Position numbers and translations under genes: made by a program. The notes under the pieces were generated by a model, which worked only from the letters and a program-made list of their open reading frames with translations, made no database searches and was not told the DNA's origin. Shown here one piece after another: positions 7,935-48,296 of a stretch of DNA of 52,076 nucleotides (its first letter is position 1; each line of letters begins with the position of its first letter). The stretch is from Leptolyngbyaceae cyanobacterium (lineage in GTDB: Bacteria; Cyanobacteriota; Cyanobacteriia; Phormidesmidales; Phormidesmidaceae): positions 1-52,076 of the forward strand of contig CBDHHL010000053.1 of assembly GCA_965263355.1 (NCBI GenBank), read 5' to 3'.

Positions 7935-10457
7935 ATGCCCACTTCCCAAATTCCTGCTGTTGCTTGGACCTGGCCCATAGGCGCAACCTGGGAGACGCCC
8001 TACATTGTGCGCTATGCCAGCAATTTAGACGACGGTCCCGAGCATGGCATCCCGCTAGGGGGACTGGGAGCTGGGTGTATCGGTCGAGCCCCAAACGGCA
8101 CGTTTAATCTCTGGCATTTAGATGGCGGAGAGCATATATTTGACCAGTTTCCAGCCTGTCAGTTTGCGGTGTACGAGCAAACAGCTGAGGCAACACAGGC
8201 CTATGCCATGGCCACCACAGGCAAAGGCTTAAGCAGCTGGCAATGGTACCCCACCAACCGTAAGGTGAGCACCGCCCGCCATTCAGAGCAAACGCCAGAT
8301 CCCGAACCACAATTACCCAATGGCGGCACCTACCACGCCCTTTATCCTCGAAGCTGGTATTCCTATAGGGACGTCTTTACGACAGAGCTAACCTGTGAGC
8401 AGTTTTCGCCCATTTGGCCAGATAATTACCAGGAAAGCAGCTATCCAGTCGCCATATTTGTATGGACCGCCCATAACCCCACAGAGCAGCCCATCACCCT
8501 CAGTATTTTGCTGAGCTGGCAGAATATGGTGGGTTGGTTTACCAATGCTGAGGCATCGTCAGACATTCAGCAGCGGGAGGATGGTAGCCCATTTTATGAC
8601 TATGTCCCCCCCCTGCGGCAGAGTGCCGGTCATTTTAATCAGCTGGTAACGGCTGAGAATGCGACGGGCACGGCAACGGGCATTGTCATGGATGGAGCCT
8701 GGAGCGGCAGCCCCAGGGAAGGAAAGGGGCAGTTTTGTATTGCGATCGCAACCGACGCAGCAGTAACGTATCACACACGCTGGAATCCCGATGGCGATGG
8801 CAGTGACCTATGGACCGACTTTGCTACCCATGGAAGTTTAAGTAATGTTGCAGATACAACATCTGCGGTGGGGGAGGAACAGGTGGGGGGTGCGATCGCA
8901 GTAAAGTTTACCCTGGCTCCCGGTGAAACTAAAGACATCCCCTTCGTGCTCAGCTGGGATTTGCCCGTCACCGAGTTTGCACCGGGCAAGCTAGCCTATC
9001 GACGCTATACGGACTTTTGCGATCGCGGCGGGCGCAATGCCTGGAAACTGGCCCAGGATGCCCTGACCCATTACCAAACCTGGCAACAACACATCATCGA
9101 TTGGCAGCAACCGATTTTAGACCAGGCAGATCTGCCCGATTGGTTCAAAATGGCCCTGTTTAACGAACTCTACGACATGGCCAGCGGCGGTACCCTCTGG
9201 TCTGCCGCCAGTGATACCGATCCGGTCGGCCAATTTGGCGTGTTGGAATGCCTGGACTACCGCTGGTATGAAAGTCTCGATGTGCGGCTATACGGCGGTT
9301 TTTCTACACTGATGCTATGGCCTGAGTTAGAGAAAGCCATTATCCGGGCCTTTGCTCGGGCTATTCCCACCGAGGACCCCACACAGCGAATTATTGGCTA
9401 CTACTACACAGTAGGTGAAGCCGAGCACCTGGCCCCTAGAAAACTAAAAGGAGCCACCCCCCACGACTTGGGTGCCCCCAATGAACATCCTTGGGTGGCT
9501 ACAAACTACACCAGCTACCAAGACTGCAATCAATGGAAAGATCTACCCAGTGATTTTGTACTGCAGGTCTATCGTGCTTTTCTGCTCACAGGTGGGGATG
9601 ATCTAGAGTTTTTAGCTGACTGCTGGCCTGCGGTAACTGAAACACTGCAGTATCTCAAACTGTTTGATAAAGATGGCGATGGGGTGCCTGAAAATGGGGG
9701 AGCCCCGGATCAAACCTTTGATGACTGGCAGTTACAAGGACTAAGCGCCTACTGTGGCGGGCTGTGGTTGGCGGCGTTAGAGGCTGCGATCGCCATGGGC
9801 GACATTTTGCAACAGCACAAAAAAATCTCCGGTAGCTTTGCCATTGTGAAATCTCAGTATCAACGTTGGATTAAACAGGGCAAAATCGTTTATCAAAACA
9901 AGCTCTGGACCGGCAGCTTCTATCGGCTAGATGCTGAAAGTAATTCTGATGTCGTGATGGCAGACCAGCTCTGTGGTCAGTTTTGCGCTCGCCTGATGGA
10001 TTTACCAGACATTGTGGATGAGGAGTACATCGACATCGCTCTCGACACTATTTATGACGCCTGCTTTGTCAAGTTCAACCAATATGCGGCCACCCATGCC
10101 AAACCCCAAAACCAAAAGTTTGCAGGGGCTCAAACAGGGTTGTTTAGTGCCGCCCAGTTAGGCATGGCCATTGGTGCTGCTAACGGTGTTAAACCAGACG
10201 GGTCGCCAGAGAATCCTGACGATACCCATCAGCTAGAAGTGTGGACCGGCATTAACTTTGGCCTAGCTGCGTTTTTGGCTCAAATGGGTAAACGCGAGCA
10301 AGCCATGGCCATTACCGAGGCCATCGTCCGCCAGATTTACGACTATGGTCTACAATTTCGCACCCCCGAAGCCATTACCGCCATGGGCACCTTTAGAGCC
10401 TGCCACTATTTGCGCCCTATGGCTATTTGGGGACTGTATGCTCAGCTGCAAACTTAG
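7935..10457 (+). CDS. GH116 family glycoside hydrolase (non-lysosomal glucosylceramidase-like)
   Basis: GIPLGGLGAG, LECLDYRWY, PHDLG, WKDL, PDQTFDDW, ADQLCGQ, EVWTG, FRTPEA, YLRPMAIW. Confidence 0.92.
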   Translation: MPTSQIPAVAWTWPIGATWETPYIVRYASNLDDGPEHGIPLGGLGAGCIGRAPNGTFNLWHLDGGEHIFDQFPACQFAVYEQTAEATQAYAMATTGKGLSSWQWYPTNRKVSTARHSEQTPDPEPQLPNGGTYHALYPRSWYSYRDVFTTELTCEQFSPIWPDNYQESSYPVAIFVWTAHNPTEQPITLSILLSWQNMVGWFTNAEASSDIQQREDGSPFYDYVPPLRQSAGHFNQLVTAENATGTATGIVMDGAWSGSPREGKGQFCIAIATDAAVTYHTRWNPDGDGSDLWTDFATHGSLSNVADTTSAVGEEQVGGAIAVKFTLAPGETKDIPFVLSWDLPVTEFAPGKLAYRRYTDFCDRGGRNAWKLAQDALTHYQTWQQHIIDWQQPILDQADLPDWFKMALFNELYDMASGGTLWSAASDTDPVGQFGVLECLDYRWYESLDVRLYGGFSTLMLWPELEKAIIRAFARAIPTEDPTQRIIGYYYTVGEAEHLAPRKLKGATPHDLGAPNEHPWVATNYTSYQDCNQWKDLPSDFVLQVYRAFLLTGGDDLEFLADCWPAVTETLQYLKLFDKDGDGVPENGGAPDQTFDDWQLQGLSAYCGGLWLAALEAAIAMGDILQQHKKISGSFAIVKSQYQRWIKQGKIVYQNKLWTGSFYRLDAESNSDVVMADQLCGQFCARLMDLPDIVDEEYIDIALDTIYDACFVKFNQYAATHAKPQNQKFAGAQTGLFSAAQLGMAIGAANGVKPDGSPENPDDTHQLEVWTGINFGLAAFLAQMGKREQAMAITEAIVRQIYDYGLQFRTPEAITAMGTFRACHYLRPMAIWGLYAQLQT

Positions 10458-17171: not shown

Positions 17172-18485
17172 TCAACTAGTCTGGAGGAACTCAAACAAGG
17201 GACGGAACTCCCAATCTCGATGCGCGCTAAACCAGCGATCGAAGGCTTGAATGCCCTCTGCCTCATTGCCATTCCCATGAACGAGAATAATACTGCCATC
17301 CTGCACAGGGTGACCGTACGTATGGGACATCCCTGTATAAGCGAGCCATGCATCGCAATCGATAGAAAACAGATCTAGCTGCAAAATCGCATCCAGCCTA
17401 GAATCGTCATGAATCAGCCCTGGGAAACGATAGTATACCGAGGGAACGATGCCCCATTCAAGCATCAACTGCTCCAGACGCAAGGTATCTGCTCGCAACT
17501 CAGCAATCGAAAAATCGTTGAGGAAACCTCCAGATTTTGGATGTGCCCATGAATGCAATCCCCATATTATGTCAACATTTTCTTGCTGAGATAGTTCAAT
17601 CAAGTCATGCATTTCGCCAGGATGCTGTTCCATCCAGCGCCCAGAAACAAATATCACCGGACTAACCGACTGTTGACCCTTGACCGCAACATCCTGTAAC
17701 AACTGAAAGAAGGATGCCTCGAATCTTCGTAGAGACCAACATAGGTCTACGGTTAGCGCAGTGCTTTTCACTAGCTTCTCACGTTTACCAAACTGAAGAG
17801 ATGACTTTTGTTGCACCTTACCCATAAACCAATTTGCATACTGCAACCAATCAGTTTTGGTGAGTTCACTGGGTTCTGACGCATTACGCAAATCACTTTC
17901 GCGAATCACGTAACTTTTTGGCTCGATCCCACAGTCTGTTGCCACTACCGAGGGCTTACCATCCAATAGCATTCGTCGGCGCAACAACAAAGTTGTACAT
18001 TCGGGAATCACATACTCACCATCGTGTAATGATTTGGACGCTGATAGAGGCACGGTTGTCCATACCGTTTGGTGAATTTGCTGTAAGTCCTGAACAATAT
18101 GAGTTCGAAAGGGAGAATCTACAGAAGAAACGTTCAAATGAAGAGTCTTACCGTTCACTTCGATCCTAAGGTACGGGTCTTCTTTTACGAGATAACCAAA
18201 TGGTATGGCGCATTCATGCAGAGGAATAAACAACCGTCCGTCTAAAACTAAGGGTAAATCATTAAGTTGGATTGTATTTTTATGAGCCTCCCTCAACTGA
18301 CTAGCACCATTGGCAAACTCCCACGTCTTGCCCTGGGCAGATATCATGATTCCTCGTGCCCATCGAGTAAATGCTAAAGTCCCGTCTATCATTTCTAGAA
18401 GAGTATCTAAAGAGAGATACAATATTCCCCGATAAGTCACGGCGTTAGTGGGGTTCGTCGCAACACAAAACGAAACTCGGTTCAT
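17172..18485 (-). CDS. Polysaccharide deacetylase (NodB-like) domain protein with an N-terminal copper-amine-oxidase-N-like domain
   Basis: LTVDLC, IFVSGRW, HSWAH, YRFPGL, GSIILVHGNGNE; N-terminal P.VLDGRLFIPL. Confidence 0.7.
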   Translation of the reverse strand: MNRVSFCVATNPTNAVTYRGILYLSLDTLLEMIDGTLAFTRWARGIMISAQGKTWEFANGASQLREAHKNTIQLNDLPLVLDGRLFIPLHECAIPFGYLVKEDPYLRIEVNGKTLHLNVSSVDSPFRTHIVQDLQQIHQTVWTTVPLSASKSLHDGEYVIPECTTLLLRRRMLLDGKPSVVATDCGIEPKSYVIRESDLRNASEPSELTKTDWLQYANWFMGKVQQKSSLQFGKREKLVKSTALTVDLCWSLRRFEASFFQLLQDVAVKGQQSVSPVIFVSGRWMEQHPGEMHDLIELSQQENVDIIWGLHSWAHPKSGGFLNDFSIAELRADTLRLEQLMLEWGIVPSVYYRFPGLIHDDSRLDAILQLDLFSIDCDAWLAYTGMSHTYGHPVQDGSIILVHGNGNEAEGIQAFDRWFSAHRDWEFRPLFEFLQTS

Positions 18486-18891: not shown

Positions 18892-20640
18892 ATGAATAAA
18901 CAACAGCCAATCTCCATCCCGATTGGCCTTAAAGTCTTTGGAATTGCTGTGAGCTTACTCGGGCTATTACTGCTCGTTGCGTATAACTCCCACCAAAAAC
19001 TACGCCAACTCCGAAACGAGATTGGAGATCTGGCTGAATATATTATTCCGATCACCAATCTTGTCGATGAAGTTGATACCCAGGCACTTGAGCAAGAGAT
19101 CCATTTAGAGAGGATTTTAAAGCTCTATGAGGCGGAGCCACTGGACTTAGAACGCATTACCCATGAAAAACAACAATTCGAAGACCGCAGCCAGCAGGTA
19201 GATGTTGAGATTGCAGCAGCCATTAACCTTAGTCAGGAAGCGGTTACTCAAGCAATAATACAGGCCGATCGGGAGGAGTTAAGTCGAATTGGACCCCAAC
19301 TCACCCAGATTGAACAAGAGCATCAAGATTTTTATAATCACGCGGTTAAACTGCTGCAGCAACTGGAGGCAGGAGAACGAGGGAAGCAAATTTATACATT
19401 AGAACTGCAAATTGAGGCAGAGGAGGATCATCTCAATCAAGAGATTGAAGCAATCCTGGATGAACTTGGCAGCTACACCATTCATATGGTGCAATTGAGT
19501 AAACACCATCAAGCAGAGGTGCTGCGGAATAGCGTGTTGATTACAATAGGTGCCGTCGGACTAGGTTTGGCCTATGCTTCAGGCTTAACCTTCAGTATTG
19601 TTCATCCTTTGCGACACCTAACTAATCAGGTTCAAAGCTTGCAACAAGGTCAAGCGATCAACACCTTAAACCTCAAATCCAATGATGAAGTTGGACTTTT
19701 AAATGACACCTTTAATCATTTACTAAAGGAACTAGAGCAGAAAGAAAAACTTAAAGCCTTGTTTGGCAAGTATGTTGATCCTCGCGTGGTTAAACAACAT
19801 GAACAGCAGGGCAAGGCCTTACAAACGACTGGTGAGAAACAAATTGTGACTGTCTTAATGTCAGACATTGATGGATTTCAAAGCATTTCACAGACCCTGA
19901 TGCCTGAACAATTAGTAGATGTGATCAATCGTTATCTGAGTCTGTTATCTGCCACTGTGTCTGCTCAACACGGCTTCATCGAATTTGTAGATACGGTCAT
20001 CAAAGGATTTTGGACACCCCCTTTTGTGAGTGAAACTGCTCATGCCCAAGCTGCTTGTGAGGCTGCACTTGATCAAGTTGCAAAATTACCACAGCTGCGA
20101 CAGCTAATCCAACAGGCGACTAATGCGACAGCTGCTATTGCTGAAATTGATTTACATATTGGTCTGGCTACAGGTCCGTTAATCCTAGCCAATATAGGGC
20201 CTGAGTGGGCAACCGTTTATAGTGTCCTAGGCGATACCGTAAATACTGCTGCCCGTCTTAGGGGGGCTGCTAAGCAGTTTGGTATTCAAATCTTATTATT
20301 AGAAGAAACTCAGCAGCAGGTTCAGACAACGATGGTGACTCGTGAAATCGGCTTAGTTCAGGTTGTCGGTAAAGATGACAAACTTCGTGTTTTTGAACTT
20401 TTAGGTCGTCAAGGTGAGGTATCACCTAAAAAAATAGAATGGATAACAGCTTTCAGTCAGGGTTTAACCGCTTATCGTCAAAAAGCGTGGGATGAAGCAA
20501 CAGCAAAATTTGAGGCTTGTGTGCAGCTATGCCCTCAAGATAGACCGACCCAACACTATCTCCAGTCAATTGAGACATTGCGAGAGCAGGTCTTATTGAC
20601 AGACTGGGACGGTGTCTGGAAATTAACTCAGAAAGCATAA
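18892..20640 (+). CDS. Membrane-bound class III nucleotide cyclase, subunit A (2 TM, helical sensor, HAMP, cyclase domain, TPR-like tail)
   Basis: FGKYVDP.VV, VTVLMSDIDGF, IGLATG, YSVLGDTVNTAARL, WDGVW; KFIGD motif altered to EFVDT; ATG 18892 preferred. Confidence 0.9.
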   Translation: MNKQQPISIPIGLKVFGIAVSLLGLLLLVAYNSHQKLRQLRNEIGDLAEYIIPITNLVDEVDTQALEQEIHLERILKLYEAEPLDLERITHEKQQFEDRSQQVDVEIAAAINLSQEAVTQAIIQADREELSRIGPQLTQIEQEHQDFYNHAVKLLQQLEAGERGKQIYTLELQIEAEEDHLNQEIEAILDELGSYTIHMVQLSKHHQAEVLRNSVLITIGAVGLGLAYASGLTFSIVHPLRHLTNQVQSLQQGQAINTLNLKSNDEVGLLNDTFNHLLKELEQKEKLKALFGKYVDPRVVKQHEQQGKALQTTGEKQIVTVLMSDIDGFQSISQTLMPEQLVDVINRYLSLLSATVSAQHGFIEFVDTVIKGFWTPPFVSETAHAQAACEAALDQVAKLPQLRQLIQQATNATAAIAEIDLHIGLATGPLILANIGPEWATVYSVLGDTVNTAARLRGAAKQFGIQILLLEETQQQVQTTMVTREIGLVQVVGKDDKLRVFELLGRQGEVSPKKIEWITAFSQGLTAYRQKAWDEATAKFEACVQLCPQDRPTQHYLQSIETLREQVLLTDWDGVWKLTQKA

Positions 20641-20662
20641 AGAATTGAATATAAGCACTGTG

Positions 20663-22351
20663 ATGAAGTTTCTGCCGAAGCTATCAATTGGCCTCAAAAT
20701 CTACAGTCTGGTGGCAATGATTCTGATCATTTTGATGGGAGTTGCACTCAGTAATTATCAGCGTATGCGACGGGTAAATCAGGATGTTTTAGTTCTGGCA
20801 GAATATACAGCTCCCCTCAAAAAACATATTGCCAGTATTAATATCTATGCCCTGGAACAGGAAGTTCATTTTGAAAGAATGCTACGTATCCTTGAAGCTG
20901 AAATGCCTGACAAAGAACATTTTGGCCTTGAACAGCAACGCTTTGAAACCTTGGGCACGTTGGTGGATGAAGAGTTAGAGTCAGCCTTAGCCTTGGCTGA
21001 AACGGCGATGACCAATACATCTGATTCTCCGACAACTGTTCAATTTGCGCGGCTCAGCCCCTGGTTAGAGATTGTCGAAGAAGATCATCAAGACTTTCAG
21101 GATCAGGCCCTAAAAATTGTTAATTTGGTGCAAACGGAGCAAGGCGAAGCCGCCCGTTTACTGGATATTGAATTAGAAAGACGCGAAGAAATTTTCAATC
21201 AACGTATCTATGCAATTTTGCTTGATTTAGACCAATTTGCCGCCAAAACGGCGCAAACTATCGAGGTCCACGAGCAAAATTTGGTACGATTCAATCTCTG
21301 GCTGACAGCAATTGCCACAATTTCAGGGTTGGCTCTGGCAGCTATCCTGACTTTACGCCTGACCAACCCAGTTAAAAAGCTCGTTCAGGGGGCTCAATTA
21401 GTAGAGGCAGGTAATCTCGATACCGAGGTTGAAGTTCAATCTGGCGATGAGATTGAAACCCTAGCCAACTCTTTTAACATCATGATTCGGGATGTGCGTC
21501 AAAAACAAATCCTCAAAGAAGCCTTTGGGCAATATATTGATCCCCGCATTGTTGAGACTTTGATTGCTGAGCAAGCAGAGCAACAGGGACGAAAGGAAGT
21601 CATGACCGTGTTTTTCTCTGATTTGGCTAAGTTCAGTACAATCAGTGAACTGCTCACACCAACGCGCCTGGTTACCCTGATTAACCAGTATCTGACCCTG
21701 GCTACAGTTCCCATTATAGAAACACAGGGGGTGATTGATAAATTCATTGGGGACGCGATCGTTGCATTTTGGGGGCCACCCTTTGTGGCAGCTGCTGAAC
21801 ATGCACAACTTGCCTGTCAGACAGCCTTGGAACAAGCAACCCAATTACGCAAACTTCAGCGGCTCTTACCCGAGATTATTGGTATCCGCAAAGGAATCCC
21901 CAAGTTAGGTGTTCGCGTTGGACTCGATACAGGTGAGTTAGTACTTGGCAATATTGGGACTGAACATTTACAGTCCTATACCGTCATGGGACGAGCTGTA
22001 GAAATTGCTGAGCAACTGGAAAGCGCCAATAAGCGTTATGGCACACAGATTTTACTGACCGAACGGACGCGACAATTAGCAGGAGATGCCATTGAAGTAC
22101 GTGAAATTGATTGTCTACCAATTGGTGATAACAATACTCTCTTACCGATCTATGAATTGTTGGCCTGTGGCATTGAGTTAGATGAAGCAGTCGCAGAATT
22201 AAGAGACTATTTCAGCCAGGGGCTGCAGGCTTATCGGCAAGAAGATTGGTCAATAGCGCGATCGCACTTTGAAAGCTGCCTTAAGATTGAGCACAATGAC
22301 GGCCCTGCAAAATTTTATCTCAAGCAATTAAGTCAGTTAGCTAGGGCCTAA
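20663..22351 (+). CDS. Membrane-bound class III nucleotide cyclase, subunit B (same architecture)
   Basis: FGQYIDP.IV, TVFFSDLAKF, IDKFIGDAIVAFWG, RVGLDTG; GDTVNxAxR motif altered to GRAVEIAEQ; ATG 20663 preferred. Confidence 0.9.
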   Translation: MKFLPKLSIGLKIYSLVAMILIILMGVALSNYQRMRRVNQDVLVLAEYTAPLKKHIASINIYALEQEVHFERMLRILEAEMPDKEHFGLEQQRFETLGTLVDEELESALALAETAMTNTSDSPTTVQFARLSPWLEIVEEDHQDFQDQALKIVNLVQTEQGEAARLLDIELERREEIFNQRIYAILLDLDQFAAKTAQTIEVHEQNLVRFNLWLTAIATISGLALAAILTLRLTNPVKKLVQGAQLVEAGNLDTEVEVQSGDEIETLANSFNIMIRDVRQKQILKEAFGQYIDPRIVETLIAEQAEQQGRKEVMTVFFSDLAKFSTISELLTPTRLVTLINQYLTLATVPIIETQGVIDKFIGDAIVAFWGPPFVAAAEHAQLACQTALEQATQLRKLQRLLPEIIGIRKGIPKLGVRVGLDTGELVLGNIGTEHLQSYTVMGRAVEIAEQLESANKRYGTQILLTERTRQLAGDAIEVREIDCLPIGDNNTLLPIYELLACGIELDEAVAELRDYFSQGLQAYRQEDWSIARSHFESCLKIEHNDGPAKFYLKQLSQLARA

Positions 22352-24716: not shown

Positions 24717-25532
24717 ATGGGCAGTCGTAAAACCCTTTGGCGCGTTTGGACAACCCTATTGTTAGGAATGGGGTGTATGGCTGCGATCGCATGCACCCTC
24801 AACTCCCAAGACCTAGCATCCAGCTCCACTATGACGACATCTGATACCTATGGCTGCTACCGTGCAGGCCAGTGTGACCATGCCCTTGCCAGTTCTCAAC
24901 ACTGCCAAGCAGGCCGCGATTACACCATTACCAGCAGTCAGCAATTTAAGACTAATGTCGTGGTGTTATCAATCCACGGTGGCAAAATTGAACTTAAAAC
25001 CAGCCACATTAGCCATGCACTCGCCAAGCGGTACCAATGGAATCGCTATGACTTTGCTGGCCATGGCACAGCTCAATGCCTCTCAGGTCGTCGTAACTTT
25101 GATGTGCTCCATGTGACCTCTTCTAAATTTGACGAACCCCAGGCCCTAAAACTGGTGCGTGCTCATCCCAAGGCTGTTTCTATCCACGGGTATGGAAACC
25201 ATAATGGTTACCCTCCAGGCACCATTTGCGTCGGTGGACGAAACGCAACCCAGATCGCCGAATTCATTCGTCACATTGAAAACAATCAAGAGAGCTTTTC
25301 TGCCTATACCCTTATCCCCGTTGATGCCAGACATTTAAAGCCAGGGGATGTGTGCGCAGGCTTGGGAGGGACTGCTCCCCGTAACATTGTCAATCAAACG
25401 TCTACAGGCATGGGGCTGCAACTAGAACTAAGTGCGCAAATGCGTAATGATTTGACTAATCGCCAAAGCCCTCAGACAGCAGAGCTGCAAGATATTGTCT
25501 ATGGCGCTATTTACCAGGCCCTGTCTCTATAA
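24717..25532 (+). CDS. Poly-gamma-glutamate hydrolase (PghP/DUF867 family), predicted lipoprotein
   Basis: SIHGGKIE..TS, LHVTS..FDEP, VSIHG, NIVN, GLQLELS..MR; signal peptide ending in AIAC. Confidence 0.85.
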   Translation: MGSRKTLWRVWTTLLLGMGCMAAIACTLNSQDLASSSTMTTSDTYGCYRAGQCDHALASSQHCQAGRDYTITSSQQFKTNVVVLSIHGGKIELKTSHISHALAKRYQWNRYDFAGHGTAQCLSGRRNFDVLHVTSSKFDEPQALKLVRAHPKAVSIHGYGNHNGYPPGTICVGGRNATQIAEFIRHIENNQESFSAYTLIPVDARHLKPGDVCAGLGGTAPRNIVNQTSTGMGLQLELSAQMRNDLTNRQSPQTAELQDIVYGAIYQALSL

Positions 25533-25548
25533 AAGAAAACTTGATAAA

Positions 25549-25604
25549 TTGACCGATTTCTAACCGAATTATTCCCCAGATTTTACCACCAGGTTGCCTA
25601 GGGT
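25549..25604 (+). promoter_or_regulatory. 11-bp-period imperfect direct repeats before a -10-like TAGGGT; candidate OmpR-family binding array
   Basis: TTGACCGATTT CTAACCGAATT ATTCCCCAGAT TTTACCACC upstream of ATG 25632. Confidence 0.4.
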
Positions 25605-25631
25605 GAAGGTGTCGTTACATCTATCCTCGTT

Positions 25632-26300
25632 ATGACACCTTTGTACGTTAAACTCTCTGCTGCAGTCCTCGGAACCCTTACCATTACAACAACAGCATTA
25701 GGCATGACCTGTAACGCTAGTGAGATGCCAGATTGTCCTGATACATTTGATGGCTTAAATCTGAGCGACCAGCAGCAGACTCAGCTATGGCAGCTGGAAG
25801 AAGATTTAGATCGCCAAATTGAGACCATTATGCCTGTTTCTGACGAAACAGAAATGGCGATTGAGCAGCTGGAGATACAAGTTGAGCAACAGATAAGTTC
25901 ACTATTATCTTCACAGCAAACGCAACAGATTGAGGAGCTAGATACCTGGATAGATCAAGAGTTCATGGCGATTGTACCTGAATGGTTTGAAGAAGAGGAG
26001 GAAGAGCAAGAGTCCCCCTTAACGCCAGATCAAGTCCAAAAAGTAGACGCCCTTGAAAAAGACTATGAGCAGCGATTACAGAACCTGTTAACTGCCGAAC
26101 AACAGGAGGAGATTAAACGTTTAGAAGAAAAGCTAGATGAGGACATCGACGCCCTGCTACCTGAACCGAGTACTGACCAGGAGGAAAAAATTATCGCTGC
26201 TGAAGAAGCCTTTGAAGATAAGGTCAGTCAGCTCCTTACCCCTGAACAATTACAAATCGTTGAACAAAATCTTACCTGTGAGTGGCCTGACGATGAGTAA
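25632..26300 (+). CDS. Secreted, highly acidic Spy/CpxP-like (LTxxQ repeat) protein
   Basis: Signal peptide; LNLSDQQ, LSSQQ, LTPDQ, LTAEQ, LTPEQ repeats; very Glu/Asp-rich including EEEEEE. Confidence 0.7.
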   Translation: MTPLYVKLSAAVLGTLTITTTALGMTCNASEMPDCPDTFDGLNLSDQQQTQLWQLEEDLDRQIETIMPVSDETEMAIEQLEIQVEQQISSLLSSQQTQQIEELDTWIDQEFMAIVPEWFEEEEEEQESPLTPDQVQKVDALEKDYEQRLQNLLTAEQQEEIKRLEEKLDEDIDALLPEPSTDQEEKIIAAEEAFEDKVSQLLTPEQLQIVEQNLTCEWPDDE

Positions 26301-26331
26301 ATTCCTTTGCGAAATATAAGAGTTTCCTAAC

Positions 26332-26367
26332 CCTGCTAGGGGCATTGCATGCAATGCCCCTAGCAGG
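26332..26367. repeat. REP-type perfect palindrome between convergent genes
   Basis: CCTGCTAGGGGCATTGCATGCAATGCCCCTAGCAGG, 36 bp. Confidence 0.85.
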
Positions 26368-26380
26368 AAAACCTATCCCG

Positions 26381-27388
26381 CTAAGACAATGCCCATATAC
26401 CCACCATGGATGTAGCAATCAAAAGGGCCATGCACCGCAAAACAGGTTTTGTGCGATACAAAATAGCATCATTAACACAGGACAACATAGCAATATTAAG
26501 TAAGTAAGAGCTACCATATCCAATATGCTGAGCCATGGCGGGTACCGTAGCGTGTAGCCACAGCTCACTCCCCCACAGGTAAAGTGTACTCAGACACAAC
26601 ACCACGACATAACGTTTTAATCCTACGGTGAGTGTGCGTTCACAAAACCATTGGGCGATTTGGTACACCAAAACACAGCCGATTAAAAAATGTAGGCCCA
26701 TCAAGGAATCAAACATGGTTAGGGCAATAATGGGCGTGACCATATAGCCCCCAGACCGAATATCTTGATGACGATAGATCAGATATCCGAGCCCTAAGGA
26801 GAGAAAGTAGTGAATCAGTGGGTATTGAAGTTGCATTGCAGGATTGGCCTCTAGATTGATCCCTGGATTGATCGCAGTGTGAACCAGAGATGAATTACCC
26901 AAGCTAAGACCCAAGATATGTAGCAATCCCAAAATCCCTAAAACACCTGCCAGGGTAAGCCCTGTACATAGAACAACCGCTCGACTTACCCGACCAACAT
27001 TTTGTTTCCCCAGATTAAAGGCAATCACACCAGGGAGTATGGTACCGATTTGGGTATCTAGGGAAAAGTCTAGCCAGCCAAAATAGTTATAACCGAGGGC
27101 AACCAGGGTAGAAATTGTAAGGGAAAGACAGGCCAAAATATACATAGGAGTGCGACGTTTGTAATCAGTTCGTCGCAGCCATTGCTGATATATCCAATAC
27201 ACCAAAACGGATAAGCCCAATACTGTTACAAACCATAGGGGTGAAATGGTGAGCAACACCACTAAACTACCCGGTACAATTAGTCCTCCAGGGATAACAC
27301 CGTAGGTGCTGCGATATTGAATGGCGATAAAAACACCGACGAGTAAGGCAAAGTGATGAATGCTAGATGTGTTGAGGAGAGCAAGCAT
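26381..27388 (-). CDS. pgsC: Poly-gamma-glutamate synthase membrane subunit with two tandem CapC domains
   Basis: YGVIPGGLIVPG and IG.ILPGVIA; second repeat DIRSGGYMVTP; 335 aa from ATG 27388; directly downstream of pgsB. Confidence 0.85.
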   Translation of the reverse strand: MLALLNTSSIHHFALLVGVFIAIQYRSTYGVIPGGLIVPGSLVVLLTISPLWFVTVLGLSVLVYWIYQQWLRRTDYKRRTPMYILACLSLTISTLVALGYNYFGWLDFSLDTQIGTILPGVIAFNLGKQNVGRVSRAVVLCTGLTLAGVLGILGLLHILGLSLGNSSLVHTAINPGINLEANPAMQLQYPLIHYFLSLGLGYLIYRHQDIRSGGYMVTPIIALTMFDSLMGLHFLIGCVLVYQIAQWFCERTLTVGLKRYVVVLCLSTLYLWGSELWLHATVPAMAQHIGYGSSYLLNIAMLSCVNDAILYRTKPVLRCMALLIATSMVGIWALS

Positions 27389-27431
27389 GATGTTGAATCG
27401 TAAAAGTTTATTGTTGAGTTGTTCTTTTCCA

Positions 27432-27458
27432 TAGGGGCATTGCATGCAAGGCTCCTAC
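27432..27458. repeat. Degenerate REP palindrome in the pgsB-pgsC gap
   Basis: TAGGGGCATTGCATGCAAGGCTCCTAC. Confidence 0.7.
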
Positions 27459-27470
27459 GGAACTCACTTA

Positions 27471-28763
27471 TCAGGCTGCCAGAGCCAATTGCAATTCAGG
27501 TTGCTGCGTAGGCATTTCGATTGTAAGAGGTTGTTGTACTAGCTCTTGTTTCAGCTGTTGTTCTGATTGTTGAGCTAAGTATTCGTCAAAGAAGTGTAAT
27601 AATGTTTCCGCTTGTTGTGTGTGAATATTGACAGTGCCGATTAACAAAATTGGCTGATCAGTCATACCTGCCGTAATCTTGTTAAGTAACTCTGGGGCAC
27701 TTGCCTGTTTATAGGCCGTAGAATTACCTAAGTTAACAATGAGATCGCACCGTTCTTCATCCGAAAAAACAGCATTGACTCCGTTCTCATAGTCGCCAAA
27801 GGTGACAATCCGATCAAATTTCAGTTCTTTGGCAATGGTTGCAAATAGTTCCACCCGCGTTGGTCGATCTAAGCGATTATTCAAAATCACCACTTTACGA
27901 TGGTGAGGATACTGTTCAAACAGCCGTTGACAGATAAAAATAAAGCTTTCGCGATCATTCACTGCAAACAGATTGGCCCAGGCTACCTGCGCATTGGTCA
28001 CCTGCATCTGCTGCATTGAAAAGGCTCCTGGATCGGGCAATGCTGTTTGGATGGCCCTGAGGGCCGTGGAACGTGGCACCTTGAGACAGGTGGCTACCTG
28101 CAGGGCAATGGCGATGTTTTCTGCGATCGCAAAATGGTCAAACCCCTGCATCTCCTCCGGCTGCACAAGATTTGCGTGGGCTGTTAACAGTTTGGAACCT
28201 TTCTCTGCGGCCCGTTTCTCCAAAATACTCAATAACTCTGGGTTTGTTTCCGATGTGATCAATATGCCGTTGGTCGGAATTGTTACCGCTAACGATTCCG
28301 CAATTTCCGGTAACGTTTCCCCCATATAATCCGTATGATCCAGACGAACATTGGTAATAATACCAATATGGGCCTGCATTACTTTTTGTTCTAGCCATTC
28401 GGCATAGACCGGATTGACGGCCATACACTCCATCACCACTGCATCTGCCCTCTGATGCATAAACTGTTTCAAAACAGAGACCTGTTCATTAACGTTGGCA
28501 GCCCCCTTACGCTCAATCGCTTGATCCATCCCATTGGGCAACAACACTCGGGCGGCTGTTCCAGTCGTTTTCCCATAGGTGTGGTAACCCGCTGCCCTAA
28601 AAACAGCACTTACATAGCGGGTAACCGTAGATTTTCCCCGAATTCCATTCACATGAACTCGCCATTGAATATGTTGACGTTGTCGAGTAAATTGGGTAGA
28701 AAAACGGAGAGCACCCAACGCACTAACCAAAATGCCTGTGCAAGAAAACGCAAATAAAATCAT
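27471..28763 (-). CDS. pgsB: Poly-gamma-glutamate synthase catalytic subunit (Mur-ligase fold)
   Basis: VHVNGIRGKSTVTR, GKTTGTAAR, ANVNEQ, ECMAV.P, ITNVRLDH.D.MG, PDPG, N.FAVND.ES, NR.DR..R. Confidence 0.93.
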   Translation of the reverse strand: MILFAFSCTGILVSALGALRFSTQFTRQRQHIQWRVHVNGIRGKSTVTRYVSAVFRAAGYHTYGKTTGTAARVLLPNGMDQAIERKGAANVNEQVSVLKQFMHQRADAVVMECMAVNPVYAEWLEQKVMQAHIGIITNVRLDHTDYMGETLPEIAESLAVTIPTNGILITSETNPELLSILEKRAAEKGSKLLTAHANLVQPEEMQGFDHFAIAENIAIALQVATCLKVPRSTALRAIQTALPDPGAFSMQQMQVTNAQVAWANLFAVNDRESFIFICQRLFEQYPHHRKVVILNNRLDRPTRVELFATIAKELKFDRIVTFGDYENGVNAVFSDEERCDLIVNLGNSTAYKQASAPELLNKITAGMTDQPILLIGTVNIHTQQAETLLHFFDEYLAQQSEQQLKQELVQQPLTIEMPTQQPELQLALAA

Positions 28764-45845: not shown

Positions 45846-48296
45846 GTGAGCGAGGTGCTACAGCCAAATTTTCAGCTAAATGAAGATTATGCAAGAGCCA
45901 TTAAAGAATATGCCATAGAGCGTTTTGGTAAGCATGAATACTTAGTTGGCTTAACTGGCTGGTTAGTCGATCATCGGAAAATACGCTATAGCGAAAAGCA
46001 AATTGACAGTGCTCTCAAAGGACAACGGTCTCATCGTGATTTGCTCAAGGGACTATGTCGCTTTATTGGTGCTGACCTAAGCAATGCAGTGTCTAGTCCA
46101 AGCTCACGGTCTTTAATAGCTCTTAATCCTCCCAAACCAGGTGATATCACCACAACCATTGGTACATTACAAAGTAATAAGGATATTGACTACATCGTCA
46201 ATAAAATATCTGGAAAAATCAGGTTTTGCTTTGAGGAAGAAGACGCTCCTTGCAGTGATAATCGTTTTACACAAGTTGATTGGATTCAAGATAACTTCAT
46301 TGATCTAGACGTCCTTGAAGTTGAACACTTACCCTCACAGAACCCCGCTGTTCCCAGTGCGAGTGCGCTTCAAAATAACGATGAGGTCAAAAAACACGAT
46401 GAGTATGACGATGAGTATGATCGTCTAAACATTAGGCCTTTGCATGCTCATAAGACAACCAGTCGAAAGTTACTCAAAAAGTACGAACGTGCATTTATAT
46501 ACGGTAATCCTGGTTCTGGAAAGTCAACTTACCTGAGATGGGCTGCTCTCAAATGCCGCGATCAAGACCCATTCGAAAAGCGGTATGTGCCCTTGTTTCT
46601 AGAAGTGCGAAATTTTACTCTTTTGGGGTCTGGCCAAACCCTAATGACCTATTTCGAATCCACCCTAGAAAAGATTGGAATTACCTCAGCTGAGCTAGAA
46701 GCAGTCAGCAGCGATGGCAGGGTATTTTTTATACTCGATGGCGTTGATGAAATTAGTAAAGCTGATTATCGACGCCTTGCAAAAATGATCAGAAGTTTGC
46801 TTACAAACTACAGTAATTGTCGTTTTCTAATTAGTTCTAGACTCGGATTTGATGTTCGCTTTCCTGGTCTTAAAAAGGTCATTATTTCTCCTTTTACCTC
46901 GAAGAAACACATACCAAAATTTGTATATAATTGGTTTAGCGGTCTTAAGGACGGAAAGAACAAGGCCGAAATGATGTTGGAAAAGTTCAGGTCTTCTGGT
47001 TACCAAAATATTCGAGAAATTGCTAGACGACCTGTTTTATTGAGGCTGCTATGCATATTATTTGAACAAGATAGCGATTTTCCCACGCGACGGGCAGATG
47101 TTTTTCAACAAGGCATTAATGCTTTAGTACAACAGTCATCTCAAGAACCTCTCAGCACTAATATAGCCGCTCATCCTGAGTTACTGCCTAACGATGTTAC
47201 TCAGATTCTTTGCCGTGTGGCCTATCTTTTCTTTGTTGATATGGAAGGCGATACATTATTCCATACTCAAGAGGTCAAAAATGTTATTCGTAGTTATTTT
47301 CATGAGACTTACAATATTCCCCAAGCGCAGATAGATGACGAACATATCCTCAATTTAATTGAGCAATATAACGGGTTGCTAGTGAGATGGGCCAATACCT
47401 TCTGTTCTTTTTCGCATTTAACATACCAAGAGTATTTTGTTGCTCATCACCTTGTTTATCAAAACCAACAGGAGCTTGTTTATGAGTTCTTTAACAACCC
47501 TCGGTGGAAATTTATTACGGAGCTAGTTGCTGAACTCTTGCCTAATGGGCAGGCTGTCAGTTTTCTTGAAGGATTTAAATCTAATGTGGATACCCTTGTC
47601 AATACTGATGAAAAGATTGAGGACTTTCTTGAAGAATTGAATAGGGGGGCATCCTTAGCTGTACATATAAGTGGAAATCCACATCCATTTACCCCCGTTC
47701 TTATTCGCGCCTGGTATTTAGCGTATGCTGTCGGGGAAGAAACGAGTAAAATTAATGGCTCGCTTCCTAATCGAGACACGTACAGTTTTCCTGACATGTT
47801 TTATGCAACCAGCATGGTCAGCAATGAAATTTTAGAGCTGCATGGCATGGTTTACGACCTATACTACTGCGTTGTTCGTCCAAATTCAGAGTCTGGTAGC
47901 TTGCAAAAGCAGATAAGCAAACTAAAACGACTTTTCAAGACAAAAGATTCTCGCAAGGTCGATACCTTTAAGAGCTGGGAAGACCAGATTAGATATCAGA
48001 TAGATAACAATTTTAATGGTGATAAGGAGCATTGGTGGACAGATAAAAACATTCGTAATGGGTGGAGAAGGCGGGTGATTTCTCTGATGGCAACTCTAGG
48101 AGTACCCTGTACTGATAGTTTGAGTCAAGCACAAACCAAGCAGTTACAAAAGTACTACACAGCTACACATCTTTTTTCAAGGTGTCTGGATCGAGCAGTC
48201 ATCAATGATAAAAAACAGAAAAAACTAGCAAGTTCAATGCTTTTGGTCGAACAAAGCCCGCAGAATAAAGGTGACTATAACAATCAATTTTTTTAA
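45846..48296 (+). CDS. NACHT (STAND) NTPase domain protein
   Basis: Walker A GNPGSGKST, Walker B FILDGVDE, ISSR, P.LL.L.C, FSHLTYQEYF. Confidence 0.9.
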   Translation: MSEVLQPNFQLNEDYARAIKEYAIERFGKHEYLVGLTGWLVDHRKIRYSEKQIDSALKGQRSHRDLLKGLCRFIGADLSNAVSSPSSRSLIALNPPKPGDITTTIGTLQSNKDIDYIVNKISGKIRFCFEEEDAPCSDNRFTQVDWIQDNFIDLDVLEVEHLPSQNPAVPSASALQNNDEVKKHDEYDDEYDRLNIRPLHAHKTTSRKLLKKYERAFIYGNPGSGKSTYLRWAALKCRDQDPFEKRYVPLFLEVRNFTLLGSGQTLMTYFESTLEKIGITSAELEAVSSDGRVFFILDGVDEISKADYRRLAKMIRSLLTNYSNCRFLISSRLGFDVRFPGLKKVIISPFTSKKHIPKFVYNWFSGLKDGKNKAEMMLEKFRSSGYQNIREIARRPVLLRLLCILFEQDSDFPTRRADVFQQGINALVQQSSQEPLSTNIAAHPELLPNDVTQILCRVAYLFFVDMEGDTLFHTQEVKNVIRSYFHETYNIPQAQIDDEHILNLIEQYNGLLVRWANTFCSFSHLTYQEYFVAHHLVYQNQQELVYEFFNNPRWKFITELVAELLPNGQAVSFLEGFKSNVDTLVNTDEKIEDFLEELNRGASLAVHISGNPHPFTPVLIRAWYLAYAVGEETSKINGSLPNRDTYSFPDMFYATSMVSNEILELHGMVYDLYYCVVRPNSESGSLQKQISKLKRLFKTKDSRKVDTFKSWEDQIRYQIDNNFNGDKEHWWTDKNIRNGWRRRVISLMATLGVPCTDSLSQAQTKQLQKYYTATHLFSRCLDRAVINDKKQKKLASSMLLVEQSPQNKGDYNNQFF

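Follow-up and report, generated by a model that had tools for sequence, protein, structure and literature searches.

According to a passage in one account, the class III nucleotide cyclases of prokaryotes are typically homodimers (PMC4886424), and a passage in another describes the bacterial enzymes as homodimerising and calls the fused form, and that form alone, unknown in bacteria (PMC9552081). An analysis was conducted of a 52,076 nucleotide stretch of DNA, referred to here as the window, from a Leptolyngbyaceae cyanobacterium (assembly GCA_965263355.1, contig CBDHHL010000053.1). Two adjacent genes within it, here named A and B, encode receptors with class III cyclase domains, and the residues needed for one catalytic site are divided between their products. 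Judging from their sequences, A and B probably belong together as subunits of a single nucleotide cyclase that acts as a membrane receptor. A search of the full-text literature, with most subscription papers outside its reach, found no two-gene bacterial split cyclase.

The Chloroflexus enzymes resembling soluble adenylyl cyclase, reported by Kobayashi in 2004, are said to be single-chain bacterial C1-C2 tandems. The adenylyl cyclase (AC)-like protein of P. aeruginosa (PDB 6YII) reportedly has a two-domain single-chain layout as well and is said to be without cyclase activity; its chain has 473 residues. Since such tandems are known, an asymmetric cyclase is in itself no novelty in bacteria. 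They share an asymmetric two-domain class III core with A and B, but are soluble and fused, whereas A and B are two membrane receptors with a sensor each.

In the mammalian membrane adenylyl cyclases (1CJK, 1AZS), as is proposed for A and B, a half for the metals and gamma-phosphate (C1) is joined to a half that supplies the base pocket, Asn, Arg and Lys (C2), giving one live site and a degenerate pseudo-site. The mammalian C2 has Ser at the position of the second metal-binding Asp, where A has Thr. A and B differ in being two genes for receptors with two transmembrane (TM) helices, a four-helix bundle (4HB) and HAMP, in having a class IIIb-type Thr rather than Asp, and in having arisen among the intact single genes of a bacterial family. 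The soluble guanylyl cyclase (sGC) alpha/beta pair (3UVJ, 4NI2) is also encoded by two paralogous genes, forms a heterodimer, and divides the eight catalytic positions in the same way, and the branch to which A belongs has a Glu in the beta-like base register. A would correspond to the C2-like or sGC beta-like half and B to the C1-like or sGC alpha-like half. Unlike sGC, A and B form a membrane receptor without H-NOX or PAS domains, have Ser/Thr rather than Cys, lack the supporting Arg on beta5, and have acquired the Glu through a deletion.

Synechocystis Cya2 (2W01) is likewise a sensor cyclase of a cyanobacterial membrane, and its base position is occupied by a Glu that a Lys supports. However, Cya2 is a homodimer with a Glu-Gly combination, a Tyr and a CHASE2 sensor, where the split pair of the window has Glu-Ser, lacks the Tyr, and carries its Lys on beta3. 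The closest sequences and folds are those of the homodimeric class IIIb cyclases, such as P. aeruginosa CyaB (3R5G) and Spirulina CyaC (1WC1), which resemble most of the family in their Lys/Thr base pair; by analogy, the intact relatives of A and B should behave like these enzymes. In CyaB and CyaC all of the catalytic residues are on one chain, which is true of neither A nor B. The rhodopsin guanylyl cyclases of chytrids, NeoR and RGC1/2, are obligate two-gene sensor-cyclase heterodimers, but they are eukaryotic and their obligation to pair is not due to split sites: RGC1 and RGC2 pair obligately with NeoR yet keep all catalytic residues, as stated in a passage of PMC8815786. By analogy, A/B appears to work like the C1/C2 core and sGC alpha/beta while being a member of neither. 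What may distinguish it is a possible cyclic GMP (cGMP) branch with a rebuilt base pocket.

Division of the catalytic residues between A and B

Both A and B have a Guanylate_cyc domain (PF00211) and the fold of a class III nucleotide cyclase (Table 1). In the eight-position scheme set out in part of PMC3591389, positions 1, 3 and 4 belong to the alpha/C1 chain and positions 2, 5, 6, 7 and 8 to the beta/C2 chain. Positions 1, 3 and 4 are present in B as D320, D364 and R418, and positions 2 and 5 to 8 in A as E364, S444, N451, R455 and K494. Neither has the full set expected on each chain of a homodimeric class III enzyme; A is without the second Asp and the gamma-phosphate Arg, and B is without Asn, Arg and the phosphate Lys. 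Reciprocal half-sites had been proposed in a first-pass annotation of the window, and the division is seen also at positions outside those used to sort the homologues described below. All seven of the codons that it cited were found in place, including those for the two metal-binding Asp of B (D320 and D364) and for the Glu and Gln that B has instead of Asn and Arg (E447 and Q451).

The same annotation considered the second Asp of A lost or shifted. In AlphaFold models, the strand is at residues 362-366 and the turn at 367-368 in A, compared to 357-362 and 363-364 in B, and by this turn register the second metal-Asp position of A is taken by T368 and not by D367. Counted from the hairpin turn, E364 occupies the place of K360 in B. 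Strand beta2 is one residue shorter in A than in B in the alignment, from which it appears that the base-selecting Lys of A has been deleted and that E364 descends from the Asp preceding it; one member of the branch still has Asp at position 364. The first-pass annotation took the purine-selecting Lys to have become Glu; as the history of this site, Lys-to-Glu substitution was rejected in favour of a one-residue deletion.

Two other differences between the subunits were seen. The C-terminal Trp/Lys tail of A (20593-20637) is invariant in the A-type homologues (73/73), nearly so in the intact genes, and truncated or degenerate in the B-types, so that it tracks the role of Asn/Arg donor. B has a Glu three residues after the Asn position (22010-22012), as do 91 of 98 B-types, compared to Ser or Ala in A and the intact genes. 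This Glu may block or shape the pseudo-site.

Table 1. Features of genes A and B in the window
Feature	Position	Strand	Remarks
Gene A	18892-20640	+	582 aa (P0001); TM - four-helix-bundle sensor - TM - HAMP - transducer element - class III cyclase - TPR-like helices - conserved C-terminal tail
A periplasmic four-helix-bundle sensor	18988-19527	+	About residues 33-212; 31% identical to B counterpart
A HAMP	19594-19740	+	Residues 235-283; PF00672, E 3e-8
A class III cyclase domain	19837-20379	+	Residues 316-496; PF00211, E 3e-14
A M323 and D325	19858-19866	+	D325 is the first metal Asp, kept; part of the putative pseudo-site
A beta2-beta3 hairpin, remodelled	19981-20004	+	E364 (19981) in base-selecting register; D367; T368; K371 opposite E364
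A S444, N451 (20242), R455 (20254)	20221-20256	+	S444 is the second base-selecting position; all kept
A K494	20371-20373	+	Phosphate-binding Lys, position of AC K1065 and sGC beta K593 (PMC3591389)
A C-terminal TPR-like helices	20425-20580	+	Residues 512-563; weak TPR_2 match, E 0.01; structure model
Gene B	20663-22351	+	562 aa (P0002); layout as A but without conserved tail
B HAMP	21347-21499	+	Residues 229-279; PF00672, E 4e-12
B class III cyclase domain	21587-22078	+	Residues 309-472 by Pfam
B residues of the putative live site	D320 21620, D364 21752, R418 21914	+	Metals and gamma-phosphate; kept
B residues of the putative pseudo-site	K360 21740, T440 21980, E447 22001, Q451 22013	+	K360 and T440 kept; E447 and Q451 instead of Asn and Arg

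Homologues and origin of the pair

The best 120 of 334 matches to A and the best 120 of 884 matches to B gave 226 sequences, not counting the duplicate of the window. When sorted by the two metal Asp and the Asn/Arg pair, these comprised 73 A-type sequences, 98 B-type sequences, and 55 intact single genes, with none in which both halves were missing. Sorting by these residues is circular, so positions outside the sorting were checked independently. The gamma-phosphate Arg is present in 98/98 B-types and 55/55 intact genes, compared to 18/73 A-types. The phosphate Lys has the opposite distribution, being in 72/73 A-types and 54/55 intact genes but 7/98 B-types, in which this loop aligns poorly. 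Phe of the phosphate loop is found in 98/98 B-types and 43/73 A-types. In the A-types the second metal Asp has become Thr in 69 of 73.

Another reading of the pair is that A is an active homodimer, with its metals on D325 and the shifted D367, and that B is an inactive modulator which titrates or inhibits it. Window A does have both of these Asp, 11 of the 18 members of its branch have Asp367, and all of the base-side residues are on A. However, 43 of the 73 A-types have Gly, Asn or Arg at position 367, 17 are without the first Asp, and 55 are without the gamma-phosphate Arg. If B served only to inhibit, it would have no need of the Asp pair and Arg, yet all 98 B-types keep them. This reading is considered distinctly unlikely, and the division of one site between A and B is preferred.

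Trees were made with the motif columns masked, first without and then with outgroups. The first covers 222 sequences, four short ones having been left out, and sets the A-types, the B-types, and the intact genes apart from one another. Eleven outgroups and nine further intact genes were added for the second, with one truncated sequence left out. Here the A clade has a support of 1.0 and the B clade 0.98, and the two are sisters (0.76) nested among the intact genes. Because of this nesting, A and B read as copies of an intact gene for a homodimeric TM-4HB-TM-HAMP-cyclase that was duplicated, each copy then losing the functions that the other retained. One of 19 A/B pairs that could be matched is from Desulfococcaceae HSG8, thus the system is not confined to the cyanobacteria.

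Gene order and selection

Matches were found in 29 different genomes from five overlapping samples of cyanobacteria (401, 201, 1, 150, and 391 genomes). The family-level sample around G002 consisted of that genome alone, and the sample across the phylum brought no addition. In each genome the top 3-9 candidates were scored, and a miss means not found among those. Four of the 29 are uninformative, as contigs end there. In 24 of the 25 informative genomes, A is followed directly by B on the same strand, 6 of the 24 being fragments at contig ends. The conserved adjacent pairs with the same reciprocal substitutions that the first-pass annotation suggested looking for are present in nearly all of the informative genomes. 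Apart from small clusters, one of 4 loci and one of 2, the 13 flanking regions compared have no third gene in common with one another or with the window, which suggests that the A-B pair moves as a unit. The divergent gene upstream of A in the window (17172-18485), which has a weak polysaccharide deacetylase domain, is not conserved beside the pair in its relatives.

Among 11 intact relatives, none has a neighbouring cyclase of the same family in the available DNA, which extends more than 2.9 kb on both sides in 4; an extra match beside the intact relative L011 is to the TPR family only. A scan of the genome contigs with A alone gave only 5 loci. A scan of metagenomes with the A alignment, using generic patterns, found intact or distant cyclases and no split pair among the 80 loci taken from it, and these loci served as controls and outgroups. 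Fused A-B proteins were not found among proteins of 1020-2910 aa at E 1e-20, which is weak evidence. A second, truncated A-type copy, which belongs to the Lys-type branch and has no B neighbour, is present in one genome (G001, L136:4884-6056).

Compared to the closest relative, A has a ratio of nonsynonymous to synonymous substitution rates (dN/dS) of 0.085 and B one of 0.088, with about 0.055 in the cyclase domains. By this measure both genes are under purifying selection.

The predicted heterodimer

A complex of A (residues 236-582) and B (residues 230-562) with GTP and two Mg was modelled. The A:B model scored 0.65 and the best control 0.00; of the pairs used to set the mark for this score, 116 of 157 solved ones reach it, as do 2 of 215 mismatched ones. 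At least 89% of contacts are common to the runs, and the predicted confidence (pLDDT) of the partner is at least 83. The interface consists of the usual head-to-tail cyclase dimer and paired HAMP helices. Since class III dimers have already been solved, the model would indicate compatibility and likeness to those structures, and not a preference for the mixed pair.

A heterodimer of A and B with a single catalytic site is likely; the two genes form a conserved system, and pairing in it is probably obligate. One live site and one pseudo-site had been predicted from the window, and the conserved split and the conserved adjacency both speak in favour of this. Under this proposal, A and B would be expressed together and dimerise along their whole length. 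The paired four-helix bundles would respond to a cue in the periplasm, and TM2, HAMP, and the transducer element would relay it so that the catalytic dimer closes. In the live site, D320 and D364 of B would bind the metals and R418 the gamma-phosphate, with the base pocket, N451, R455, and K494 given by A. The mirror site, made of D325, T368, and H422 of A with K360, T440, E447, and Q451 of B, would be unable to cyclise, though a nucleotide or another regulator may bind there. Little or no activity would be expected of A:A and B:B.

Several observations weigh against such an obligate heterodimer. The catalytic interface of sGC accepts both homodimers and heterodimers, according to part of PMC3591389. 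With D325 and D367 retained, window A may have a weak activity as A:A. The grouping of A and B as sisters has moderate support, as has the root of the tree. The distances of the 19 A/B pairs correlate in a mirror tree (Spearman 0.90, 0/2000 permutations), but common ancestry of the hosts would give the same signal, and for 18 of the 19 the pairing rests on identical length of the source sequence. One genome, G002, carries A and B unlinked (a small gene pair resembling a toxin-antitoxin system, as judged by eye from translations, precedes the separated B in L122). Finally, B of the closest relative, L001, has one in-frame premature stop (8504-8506) at the start of HAMP. The dN/dS is low on both sides of this stop, which is either an assembly error or a recent loss.

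The premature stop, together with the truncated second A copy in the same genome, could be taken to mean that A and B are tandem duplicates decaying independently, complementary to each other by chance. This is scarcely credible given that dN/dS is below 0.1 for both genes, that the same split is found in 171 homologues with 0 of 226 lacking both halves, and that the order is kept in 24 of the 25 informative genomes while the neighbours change. Orthologues with intact motifs, which would have pointed to decay in this strain, had been named beforehand as an outcome that would count against the heterodimer; the recurrent split, low dN/dS, and conserved adjacency instead led to strain-specific decay being rejected.

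The complex might also be catalytically dead, a nucleotide-binding receptor that signals through its TPR region. That an ATP-binding bacterial class III-like protein exists (title of PDB 6YII) and that the base pocket of the branch is non-canonical would be in keeping with this, but the residues of the composite site are retained, with N451, R455, and K494 in 18/18 branch members and both Asp and the Arg in all B-types. A pseudo-enzyme complex is accordingly viewed as very unlikely, and a catalytically competent A:B heterodimer is preferred.

Nucleotide specificity

Lys/Thr is given as the class IIIb adenine pair in a passage of PMC2613629. This pair is kept by 55 of 73 A-types and by all 55 intact relatives, on which basis the family as a whole appears to be adenylate-type, and the Lys/Thr majority would be expected to make cyclic AMP (cAMP). 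The first-pass annotation had called the pair a guanylate cyclase. That label fails for the family, and a family-wide guanylate cyclase was rejected on the same counts; the GTP prediction could apply to no more than the 18 of 73 A-types in the branch described next.

Window A, with its Lys deleted, sits in an 18-member branch (support 0.98) that extends down to 37% identity. The branch has about 20 concerted changes in the cytoplasmic part, three of which are in or beside the base pocket. Phe, found in 55/55 Lys-type A sequences and 55/55 intact genes, has become Met (M323) in 17/18. The Lys is deleted and the Asp, present in 55/55 Lys-type A sequences, has become Glu (E364) in 17/18. Met has become Lys (K371) in 17/18, compared to 0/55 Lys-type A sequences. 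The positions of M323 and K371 presumably contribute to the base pocket, and in the model of A, K371 pairs with E364 across the hairpin. N451, R455, and K494 are kept in 18/18 members, which suggests that the site is still maintained in this branch. Its second base position is Thr in 15 and Ser in 3, with S444 of the window among the Cys, Ser, or Gly used to recognise guanylyl cyclases (GCs).

E364 is four residues before the second-Asp position. This is the spacing in CYG12, where the residues are Glu523 and Asp527 in a passage of PMC2576301. Glu497 is the corresponding contact in the rhodopsin guanylyl cyclase RhGC, and part of PMC7384201 says that it dominates guanine recognition and lists Glu/Ser as a GC pair. 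In Cya2, the Glu has a supporting Lys according to one excerpt (PMC6005667), and E488K alone gives AC activity according to another (PMC5995499). Taken together, whether the window branch prefers to make cGMP could go either way. A dual or other product is unlikely.

Among the points that weigh against GTP is the Lys/Thr pair of the 55 A-types. In GCs a supporting basic residue presumably lies two residues ahead of the second base-selecting one, and alignment places a Lys there in Cya2. The branch has no equivalent, with Val, Ser, Met, Ala, Thr, Ile, or Asn at position 442. The residue three after the Asn is Ala or Ser, so there is no Cya2-like Tyr. K360 of B is a named interface residue in the complex model and E364 of A is not. 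In the mycobacterial enzyme Ma1120, K101E/D157T still prefers ATP (kcat/Km 3.16 vs 0.23), as reported in a passage of PMC4215837. K371 could replace the lost Lys for adenine; it may equally be a substitute for the supporting base of GCs.

It is possible, if somewhat doubtful, that the window branch makes cAMP, the heterodimer having stayed an adenylate cyclase in which K371 on beta3 replaces the deleted Lys and is oriented by E364. This is compatible with a split heterodimer and concerns its product. The ancestral state would be Lys/Thr, seen in 55/55 intact genes and 55/55 other A-types, and Thr or Ser is still kept at the second position (15 and 3). K371 stands in place of an invariant Met in 17/18, paired across the hairpin with E364; the helper residues of GCs are absent; and single Lys-to-Glu changes often leave the preference unswitched. 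Yet the Glu is in the canonical GC register, the change from Asp to Glu is nearly fixed solely in this branch, an acid with a neighbouring base is the Cya2 arrangement, and Cya2 gains AC activity from E488K alone.

The B-types that partner the branch group in a clade of 16 sequences (support 1.0). The pseudo-site Lys is present in 16/16 of these compared to 45/80 other B-types, a hint that the pseudo-site of the branch may still bind something; the 16 B subunits share one ancestor and would count as one event. It can be proposed, tentatively and with somewhat less than even confidence, that the window pair is a two-gene bacterial receptor guanylate cyclase, which would have reached the design of sGC alpha/beta independently and moved from ATP to GTP by an undescribed route (Lys deleted, acid shifted in, K371 gained), with a Lys/Thr pseudo-site that may read ATP allosterically.

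Every stage of the transition from homodimer to heterodimer that lies behind the adenylyl and soluble guanylyl cyclases of animals appears to be represented in the family. Some members are intact single genes, others are split but keep Lys/Thr, and in one kind of split pair the base pocket has been rebuilt. These small bacterial proteins would make both the purpose of the degenerate pseudo-site and a natural ATP/GTP specificity switch testable. If it is true that the branch makes cGMP, it would be an addition to the very few bacterial guanylate cyclases. Such genes, annotated or assayed singly, would be called inactive.

Gene layout and sensors

A and B are 34% identical over 561 aa. Each has two hydrophobic segments (11-29 and about 212-233) with a helical region in between, so that two TM helices flank a four-helix bundle and are followed by HAMP, as in 4HB-sensor HAMP receptors. 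The open reading frames, Pfam domains, and hydrophobic segments agree with the TM-sensor-TM-HAMP-cyclase layout originally noted for two genes 22 bp apart. The gap is 22 bp if B starts at the ATG at 20663, and 4 bp if it starts at the in-frame TTG at 20645. A scan for promoters and terminators was at chance level (10 vs 8.1 expected; 3 vs 4.5) and gave no terminator-like site between the genes; with the 22 bp gap, this suggests that A and B are probably co-transcribed. The closest relative of A (85% identity) is from a cyanobacterial metagenome-assembled genome.

The cyclase domain of A matches the structure of CyaB (3r5g; Z 22.5, root-mean-square deviation (rmsd) 2.9, 192 aligned). TPR_2 was matched in 30 of 67 A members, and in the models a helical region of B (508-561) corresponds to the TPR-like helices of A. 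No H-NOX or PAS domain is among the Pfam matches, of which HAMP, cyclase, TPR, and 4HB-type are the only ones of note, and the models leave no space for one.

The A sensor has Atlas feature matches to 4HB_MCP_1/TarH (0.93-0.94) and structural matches to the LytS sensor (5xsd_L; Z 16.2, rmsd 1.5, 121 aligned) and PcaY_PP (6s18_A; Z 16.1, rmsd 2.2, 143 aligned). 4HB_MCP_1 is matched in 11/67 A members and 9/81 B members. The periplasmic regions of A and B are paralogous four-helix bundles with common conserved Glu, Gln, Arg, and His positions across both clades. In the heterodimer, the paired sensors would form one unit, and a single shared sensor site is as plausible as two inputs. The suggestion of an AND gate over two different sensors finds no support, the sensors being paralogous with conserved residues in common and the genes probably co-transcribed. 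Five B-types (P0189, P0197, P0202, P0061, and P0175) are 670-745 aa with a longer N-terminal region that has no Pfam family, possibly a second sensor module.

Other features of the window

Downstream of the pair, genes for a CapB-like ligase (27471-28763, - strand) and CapC (26381-27445, - strand) face a poly-gamma-glutamate hydrolase gene (24717-25532, + strand), and 24717-28763 is likely a cluster for poly-gamma-glutamate synthesis and turnover. Between the hydrolase and CapC genes (25632-26300) there is a 222 aa acidic, repetitive helical protein that has a hydrophobic N-terminus and no Pfam match. At 45846-48296, a NACHT NTPase with an NCH2 domain adjoins a pentapeptide-repeat gene.

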